Assembly (NCBI RefSeq): GCF_963921235.1
Contig: NC_086097.1
Coordinates: forward strand, 24,368,001-24,432,000
DNA length: 64,000 nucleotides
Reading direction: 5' to 3'
Source of the DNA: Mobula hypostoma
Taxonomy: Eukaryota
Each line of letters begins with the position of its first letter. Positions within the stretch are counted from its first letter, which is position 1. Made by a program: the position numbers and the translations under genes. Below the pieces are notes generated by a model. That model ran no database searches and had not been told where the DNA came from. It saw nothing but the letters and a program-made list of their open reading frames with translations. Below are positions 27,112 to 28,750 of the stretch, piece after piece.

Positions 27112-28750
27112 CTGTTGAAGTCAGAAGTTTACATACACCTTAGCCAAATACATTTAAACTCAGTTTTTCACAATTCCTGACATTTAATCCTAGAAAACAT
27201 TCCCTGTCTTAGGTCAGTTAGGATCACTACTTTATTTTAAGAATGTGAAATGTCAGAATAATAATAGAGAGAATAATTTATTTCAGCTTTTATTTCTTTC
27301 ATCACTTTCCCAGTGGGTCAGAAGTTTACATACGCTTTGTTAGTATTTGGTAGCATTGCCTTTAAATTGTTTAACTTGGGTCAAACATTTTGGGTAGCCT
27401 TCCACAAGCTTCTCAAAGTAAGTTGCTGGAATTTTGTTCCATTCCTCCAGACAGAACTGGTGTAACTGAGTCAGGTTTGTAGGCCTCCTTGCTCGCACAT
27501 GCTTTTTCAGTTCTGTCCACAAATTTTCTATCGGATTGAGGTCAGAAAATGATGTCAAGTCTGGTTCATCCTTGGGAGCAGTTTCCAAATGCCTGAAGGT
27601 ACCACGTTCATCTGTACAAACAATAGTATGCAAGTATAAACACCATGGGACCATGCAGCGGTCTTACCGCTCAGGAAGGAGACGCATTCTGTCTCCTAGA
27701 GATGAACGTACTTCGGCATGAAAAGTGCAAATCAATCCCGGAACAACAGCAAAGGACCTTGTGAAGATGCTGGAGGAAACAGGTAGACAAGTATCTATAT
27801 CCACAGTAAAACGAGTCCTATATCGACATAACCTGAAAGGCTGCTCAGCAAGGAAGAAGCCACTGCTCCAAAACCACCATAAAAAAGCCAGACTACAGTT
27901 TGCAAGTGCACATGGGGACAAAGATTTTACTCTTTGGAGAAATGTCCTCTGGTCTGATGAAACAAAAATTGAACTGTTTTGCCATAATGACCATCATTAT
28001 GTTTGGAGGAAAAAGAGTGACGCTTGCAAGCCGAAGAACACCATCCCAACCGTGAAGCATGGGGGTGGCAGCATCATGCTGTGGGGGTGCTTTGCTGCAG
28101 GAGGGACTGGTGCACTTCACAAAATAGATGGCCTCATGAAGAAGGAAAATTATGTGGATATATTGAAGCAACATCTCAAGACATCAGCCAGGAAGTTAAA
28201 ACTCGGTCGCAAATGGGTCTTCCAAATGGACAATGACCCCAAGCATACCTCCAAAGTTGTGTCAAAATTGCTTAAGGACAACAAAGTCAAGGTATTGGAG
28301 TGGCCATCACAAAGCCCTGACCTCAATCCGATAGAAAATTTGTGGGCAGAACTGAAAAAGTGTGTGCGAGCAAGGAGGCCTACAAACCTGACTCAGTTAC
28401 ACCGGTTCTGTCTGGAGGAATGGAACAAAATTCCAGCGACTTACTGTGAGAAGCTTGTGGAAGGCTACCCAAAACATTTGACCCAAGTTAAACAATTTAA
28501 AGGCAATGCTACCAAATACTAACAAAGTGTATGTAAACTTCTGACCCTCTGGGAAAGTGATGAAAGAAATAAAAGAGGAAATAAATCATTCTCTCTATTA
28601 TTATTCTGACATTTCACGTTCTTAAAATAAAGTAGTGATCCTAACTGACCTAAGACAGGGAATGTTTTTTTGGATTAAATGTCAGGAATTGTGAAAAACT
28701 GAGTTTAAATGTATTTGGCTCAGGTGTATATAAACTTCTGATTTCAACTG
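27112..28750 (+). mobile_element. Sleeping Beauty-family (IR/DR) Tc1 transposon, rearranged to carry two right ends
   Basis: Ends ctgttgaagtcagaagtttacatacac ... gtgtatataaacttctgatttcaactg|TA; inner DRs at ~27310-27340 and ~28523-28553; 434-bp inverted arms 27112-27545 and 28317-28750. Confidence 0.95.
27557..28522 (+). pseudogene. Sleeping Beauty-like DD34E transposase pseudogene (first ~19 codons missing; in-frame TGA at 27719-27721)
   Basis: KSGSSLGAVSK.LKVPRSSVQTIV...[10 protein letters not shown]...FQMDNDPKH...[11 protein letters not shown]...KGNATKY*; DDE triad intact; no frameshifts. Confidence 0.95.

Follow-up and report, generated by a model that had tools for sequence, protein, structure and literature searches.

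Can a Sleeping Beauty-type transposon that has lost its left end multiply in an animal genome? Sleeping Beauty is a gene-transfer vector in clinical use, and constructs of it with two right ends are reported to transpose poorly, the primary right/right measurement reportedly being that of Izsvak 2002. The question is raised by an element lying within a 64,000-nucleotide stretch of DNA from Mobula hypostoma (the window). We propose, with good confidence, that this element is a decayed, non-autonomous derivative of Sleeping Beauty (Tss1) type with two right ends, and that it probably belongs to a family of several hundred copies.

Layout of the element and identity of its left arm

The features are as follows, with positions counted from the first letter of the window.

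27112..28750, + strand: whole element, 1,639 bp; Sleeping Beauty/Tss1-type Tc1, two right ends
27110..27111, + strand: position of the left TA duplicate, AA instead of TA
27112..27545, - strand: left arm, the inverted last 434 bp of the element in place of the left IR/DR
27112..27141, + strand: left-arm outer DR, second base altered, adjoining TA gone
27309..27338, + strand: left-arm inner DR, right-end type; the DR-to-DR interval has no half-DR-like motif
27340..27545, - strand: antisense transposase codons 273-340 and stop, within the left arm
27543..27557, + strand: 15-nt 5′ UTR island (wild-type 261-275), family-diagnostic junction with 3-nt and 2-nt overlaps
27556..28522, + strand: transposase remnant, codon 19/20 to stop, lacking the start of the full protein; premature stop at 27719-27721
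28317..28750, + strand: right arm, the native right end, with codons 273-340 and the right IR/DR; 401/434 identical to the reference L003
28524..28553, - strand: right-IR inner DR
28721..28750, - strand: right-IR outer DR
28751..28752, + strand: target-site TA, set in alternating AT

Alignment of the two arms exactly reproduces the count made by hand in an earlier, sequence-only reading of this locus: they are ungapped reverse complements over 434 bp with 20 mismatches (13 transitions and 7 transversions), 12 of which fall in the outer 229 nt and 8 in the coding 205 nt, and the right arm starts inside codon 273 of 340. Each end has two DRs about 197 bp apart, which is the IR/DR layout of the Sleeping Beauty/Tss1 subfamily. 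The left tip is damaged, with AA rather than TA at 27110-27111 against TA on the right flank, and with T at 27113 where the right end has A; dead IR/DR elements are often damaged at their tips (PMC5224488). Among the changes common to both arms is one in the outer DR (27123 and its mirror) that makes it resemble the inner DR; beside the latter, three further bases are altered in both arms (27337-27339 and mirrors).

The reference, L003, is an intact salmonid-type element, 1,639 bp long, which is flanked by TA and has a frame of 340 codons; it comes from a metagenome search (55 loci). Aligned without gaps to the right end of L003, the left arm agrees at 407 of 434 positions, whereas its alignment to the left IR of L003 needs 8 gap openings and reaches only about 67% identity. 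We therefore rejected the left arm as a genuine left IR. At position 154 in the left IR of L003 lies a copy of the DR core matching 10 of 12 letters, which we read as the published half-DR enhancer, whereas nothing between the DRs of the window's two arms matches it at more than 8 of 12. The half-DR enhancer is described as located solely in the left IR in the passages covered of PMC5224488, PMC5801840 and PMC7827188. The left arm being right-type and without a half-DR-like motif, the element has a right end on either side and no enhancer-like motif, in agreement with the two right ends claimed from the letters of the sequence; the distinct left IR with a half-DR enhancer that marks the canonical Sleeping Beauty architecture is not found here. 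Most of the 5′ UTR, the promoter region and codons 1-19 have gone from the element as well.

The near wild-type length that had been remarked on proves to equal that of L003 and L022 to the base. The arm gains 171 bases and the deletion takes 171, so that coding resumes at element position 445 in exact wild-type register, and the replaced segment (27112-27557, compared with L003 1391-1836) has exactly the wild-type length; the 171/171 match may be chance. The island, which the sequence-only reading had assigned to the Sleeping Beauty 5′ UTR, is identical to L003 261-275, a stretch that lies just inside the left repeat. Both proposed microhomologies are present, 3 letters being common to the island and the arm and 2 to the island and codon 19. 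By our estimate a 15-nt match within the element would arise by chance with a probability of about 3e-6, and a match of the 10 unshared letters alone with about 3e-3. A translatable fusion at the island was considered and rejected, as its two ATGs are off-frame and open only 14-15 codons.

The coding interior specifies a protein closely akin to SB100X, with a match of E 3.6e-135 to the SB100X structure 5CR4, matches of E 8e-14 to PAI-subdomain chains that cover part of the PAI subdomain, a Pfam transposase match and an intact DD34E triad (D153, D244, E279); the interior is identical to the salmonid Tss1 type at 724 of 761 positions. The predicted non-autonomy holds, since codons 1-19 are lost and codon 74 is a stop (27719-27721), the first lasting in-frame methionine being M90; an autonomous element would have its 5′ UTR, a start codon and a frame open over 340 codons, and this one does not. 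Neither is this a MITE, short and with most of its coding interior gone, for it is of full length and keeps 321 of 340 codons. Changes of the host lineage cluster in codons 303-317 (27413-27456, mirror about 28406-28449), and include several amino-acid changes that are near-fixed in the sequencing run X21 described below.

Among 57 loci, only L003, L022 and L023 are close along the full length, all three with a normal left side. The prokaryote genomes yielded 2 distant fragments among 68 candidates, the plasmids held no match to the element, and none of 16 candidates in viral contigs proved to be a relative. The junction pattern itself was absent from metagenome contigs (0) and viral contigs (0), as expected for an animal repeat and hence uninformative. 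Two contig-terminal loci with near-perfect inverted repeats, L009 (1-317, 1534-1850) and L041 (1-1004, 2027-3030), are distant Tc1 elements and probably assembly palindromes, and were set aside. No second copy of the element was found in the 64-kb window, where self-repeats cover about 42% of the sequence throughout its length, and where 18 selected open reading frames matched only transposase and reverse transcriptase in Pfam; reverse-transcriptase remnants lie at 19366-20712 and 40901-41893.

Abundance of the junction in the host sample

Contigs from 4 of 24 sequencing runs mapped on 27396-27695, namely X21, from the same sample and possibly the source sample of the assembly itself, and X1, X2 and X4, from three other organisms; the RNA runs X15-X20, whose shares were small, are not among the four. 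One depth bin covers only the 10 unshared bases of the island, and 150 of the 434 arm bases (27396-27545) are covered. In X21 the summed contig depth is 72,571 at the island, and the three bins that follow have 88,762, 79,152 and 70,403; for X1, X2 and X4 the island bin holds 99, 502 and 403 beside 108,094, 486,164 and 397,672. The ratio of island to coding peak is therefore 0.887 in X21 and 0.0002 in all three other organisms, which supports the multiplication of the two-right-end form that had been raised as a possibility and does not fit a junction confined to this single locus. At 27556 the normal upstream sequence occurs in 4 contigs of X21, as against 88, 118 and 114 in the other organisms; the four in X21 imply that normal copies exist in the host and are fewer than junction copies. 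Among the 8 of 1,685 X21 records listed, none bridged the junction with 31 letters on each side. One X21 contig links 27515 to 27569 with a change of strand, so that another copy has undergone an additional inversion.

Summed contig depth cannot be read as copy number, and the conversion relied on a simple simulation of unitigs in which bubbles were not removed. Overlapping contigs over-count about 11- to 21-fold at 100-1,000 copies, for which reason the naive figure of 2,400-6,000 copies from summed depth was rejected; the simulated copy number is about 150-350 or more at a single-copy depth of 12-30, and real bubble removal would push it up. With normal copies mixed in, the simulation reproduces the controls (island/coding 0, arm/coding 1.02), and the 0.887 of X21 falls between 75% and 90% junction copies. 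By this simulation, roughly four-fifths of the copies that keep the 5′ coding part carry the junction. The depth of arm over coding is 3.0 in X21 and 0.98-1.07 in X1, X2 and X4; simulation gives 2.2 for pure two-right-end copies and 1.0 for normal copies. As 3.0 exceeds the 2.2 of a pure two-right-end family, other right-end pieces must be present. The right-end coding sequence at 27446-27495 exceeds the pure two-right-end prediction in X21, and derivatives without the 5′ coding part are likely.

Proposed origin of the founder and its probable spread

Relative to L003 the two arms have 20 changes in common and 7 and 13 private changes. At the 7 shared-change positions listed, the window's letter makes up more than 99.9% of X21 depth and the other organisms have the letter of L003, so that these changes mark the host's lineage of the family. 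Within the 150 arm bases covered in X21 no variant near 50% was found outside CpG sites; there is thus no fixed arm difference there, the arms of the founder were likely identical, and the 20 arm differences would be later decay, amounting to 1.6% and 3.0% per arm. At CpG sites in X21, C>T and G>A occur at similar shares, 6-18% per site, and such two-strand decay is what is expected when many copies age independently.

We propose the following model for the history of this element. In a single founder event, which would have given identical arms, the first 446 bases of a normal element were swapped for its inverted right 434 bases and a short island of 5′ UTR, and here we lean towards a switch of template during repair guided by short homologies. 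Transposase from normal left/right copies would then have cut and pasted the founder in trans, using its four intact right-type DRs, and after amplification each copy would have decayed independently. The advantage that the enhancer confers in cell assays would most likely have set no limit on spread in vivo, and the symmetric long arms or the loss of the promoter may have aided it. Spread by transposition is thus our inference from an abundance seen as junction depth, with flanks from this one copy alone. At junction 1 the 5′ UTR (268-282) matches the inverted right end (426-440) at 13 of 15 positions, a hint that homology guided the switch, albeit with a register offset of 13 bases; an 820 x 820 comparison that left out the DR pairs gave 5 sites of this kind in all. 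Junction 2 also has a 13/15 match, which fits on one side alone and was discounted as evidence. In a motif search of the salmon Tss1 supplement (PMC6362248), the part searched gave 151 matches to the island motif and 687 to the normal coding motif, and 0 and 0 to the two junction motifs.

Given that the family is real, the founder may instead have arisen by deletion within an inverted pair, a route that we hold to be somewhat less probable than template switching but far from negligible. Two normal elements would have lain inverted with their left ends facing, and deletion of the middle at the 3-nt and 2-nt microhomologies would have left the outer right ends. A similar origin has been proposed for Rpmar49 and Rpmar17 (PMC4678618), and the island, correctly ordered and sense-oriented, would then be a remnant of the second element's own 5′ UTR. 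Against this, two deletions of a rare dimer are required, the exact length match is left unaccounted for, and no longer intermediate appears among the joints and loose ends listed.

Two further explanations concern the family rather than its founder. Most junction copies could have a normal left IR farther out or be truncated, with only some, such as this one, having the full right-type left end; only 27396-27545 of the arm was covered, which leaves room for this, but the left-edge loose ends listed for X21 run on as arm (27397) or mixed (27398) and the arm/coding depth is 3.0, and we consider the explanation quite unlikely. It is also very improbable that the copies spread by tandem or segmental duplication or as cargo, two right ends never having been a working substrate: the data covered hold the flanks of no other copy and right ends are weaker in cell assays in the passages cited below, yet the window contains a single copy whose edges coincide exactly with the IR tips, TA following at the right-hand edge, and the two-strand CpG decay fits many separate copies. 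A one-off local rearrangement or misassembly, which the damaged left terminus, a length match resembling a correction artefact and the possible identity of X21 with the source sample might suggest, is scarcely credible given an island depth thousands-fold above the 12-33 of 7 of the 8 records listed and arms that differ by 20 age-like changes.

Relation to known elements and to end preference

The element we describe resembles Sleeping Beauty and salmonid Tss1 (PMC6362248; L003, L022) in its 1,639 bp, two DRs per end and DD34E triad, and has the TA of their target site on its right flank, against AA on the left. It differs in its 434-bp arms, which include coding DNA, and in that an inverted right end takes the place of the left IR with its half-DR-like motif, of most of the 5′ UTR and of codons 1-19. 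End-for-end replacement is already known from insect mariners. In Rpmar49 and Rpmar17 of Rhodnius prolixus the 3′ part replaces the 5′ part, giving non-autonomous elements with long, transposase-bearing TIRs, and one Rpmar49 progenitor was amplified to 13 copies (PMC4678618); here too an end is replaced by the other end inverted, transposase sequence lies in the TIR, and the depth through the junction in X21 points to many copies with one breakpoint. Those mariners, however, have simple IRs and are shortened to about 920-970 bp, whereas the present element is of IR/DR type with four sites, belongs to a family with a left-only enhancer, is of full length, contains a UTR island and is the majority form. 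The Drosophila mariner MITEs Dromar7, 11, 28 and 36 (PMC4161770) are similarly highly successful derivatives with long TIRs in which one end is replaced by the other, but these are short elements and have the 5′ end in duplicate. Engineered substrates with two left or two right ends (PMC4505599, PMC3952818) share the symmetry of ends, and Mos1 works best with two right ends; for Sleeping Beauty substrates it is the left end that is favoured (PMC7827188, PMC3952818), whereas this family doubled the right.

We found no report of a natural two-right-end Sleeping Beauty family in the literature covered, subscription papers, Repbase and Dfam being outside this scope. A survey of Sleeping Beauty homologs from 2022 places them, in the part covered, in ray-finned fish and one mollusc only, with no cartilaginous fish, and describes TIRs that reach 415 bp as well as a 3′ TIR that overlaps the ORF (PMC9777934); its Table S1 may hold similar forms. 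The ITRs of Tss are 243 bp (PMC2198921). As the element is 95% identical to a salmonid-type element and the host is a ray, it is a candidate for horizontal transfer; rays and skates have undergone an expansion of Tc1/mariner elements (PMC12361510).

In the current model of Sleeping Beauty transposition assembly begins at the left end, the sole bearer of the enhancer, and the half-DR is described as an enhancer that is "not essential" (PMC7827188, in the passages covered). In cells, transposition was absent with solo right ends and amounted to 0.56% with solo left ends (PMC3952818), and Sleeping Beauty, like mariners, is most active with two preferred ends (PMC4505599). The sequence-only reading had seen in this form a possible natural exception to a left-end requirement. 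What stands of this is that the enhancer-like left end is absent yet the junction is abundant; the requirement is overstated, for if the half-DR is non-essential then the two-right-end form breaks a left-end preference. The inactivity of solo right ends in cells (PMC3952818) counts against spread of a two-right-end form by transposition, as does the loss of the left TA in this copy.

In the predicted fold, a transcript of the element would pair 422 of the 434 arm bases, including 9 perfectly paired stretches of at least 27. The IRs of Sleeping Beauty have weak inward promoter activity, and Sleeping Beauty vectors have yielded detected dsRNA (PMC3343047). Inverted arms of 434 bp that include coding sequence and number in the hundreds would be a candidate source of silencing RNA. 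It is conceivable, though we think it unlikely, that the two-right-end form was the better substrate and displaced normal copies in the host, its long symmetric arms or the host-lineage transposase making the left enhancer dispensable, and that its 434-bp fold-back transcripts then helped silence the family.

Vertebrate IR/DR elements have been said to resist amplifying short derivatives (PMC5224488), and the present form would extend end-replacement derivatives from the simple-IR mariners of insects to a vertebrate IR/DR element. As a Sleeping Beauty family without a left end that is yet the commonest 5′ form in its host, it would provide a test of the relevance of end asymmetry to spread in the germ line.
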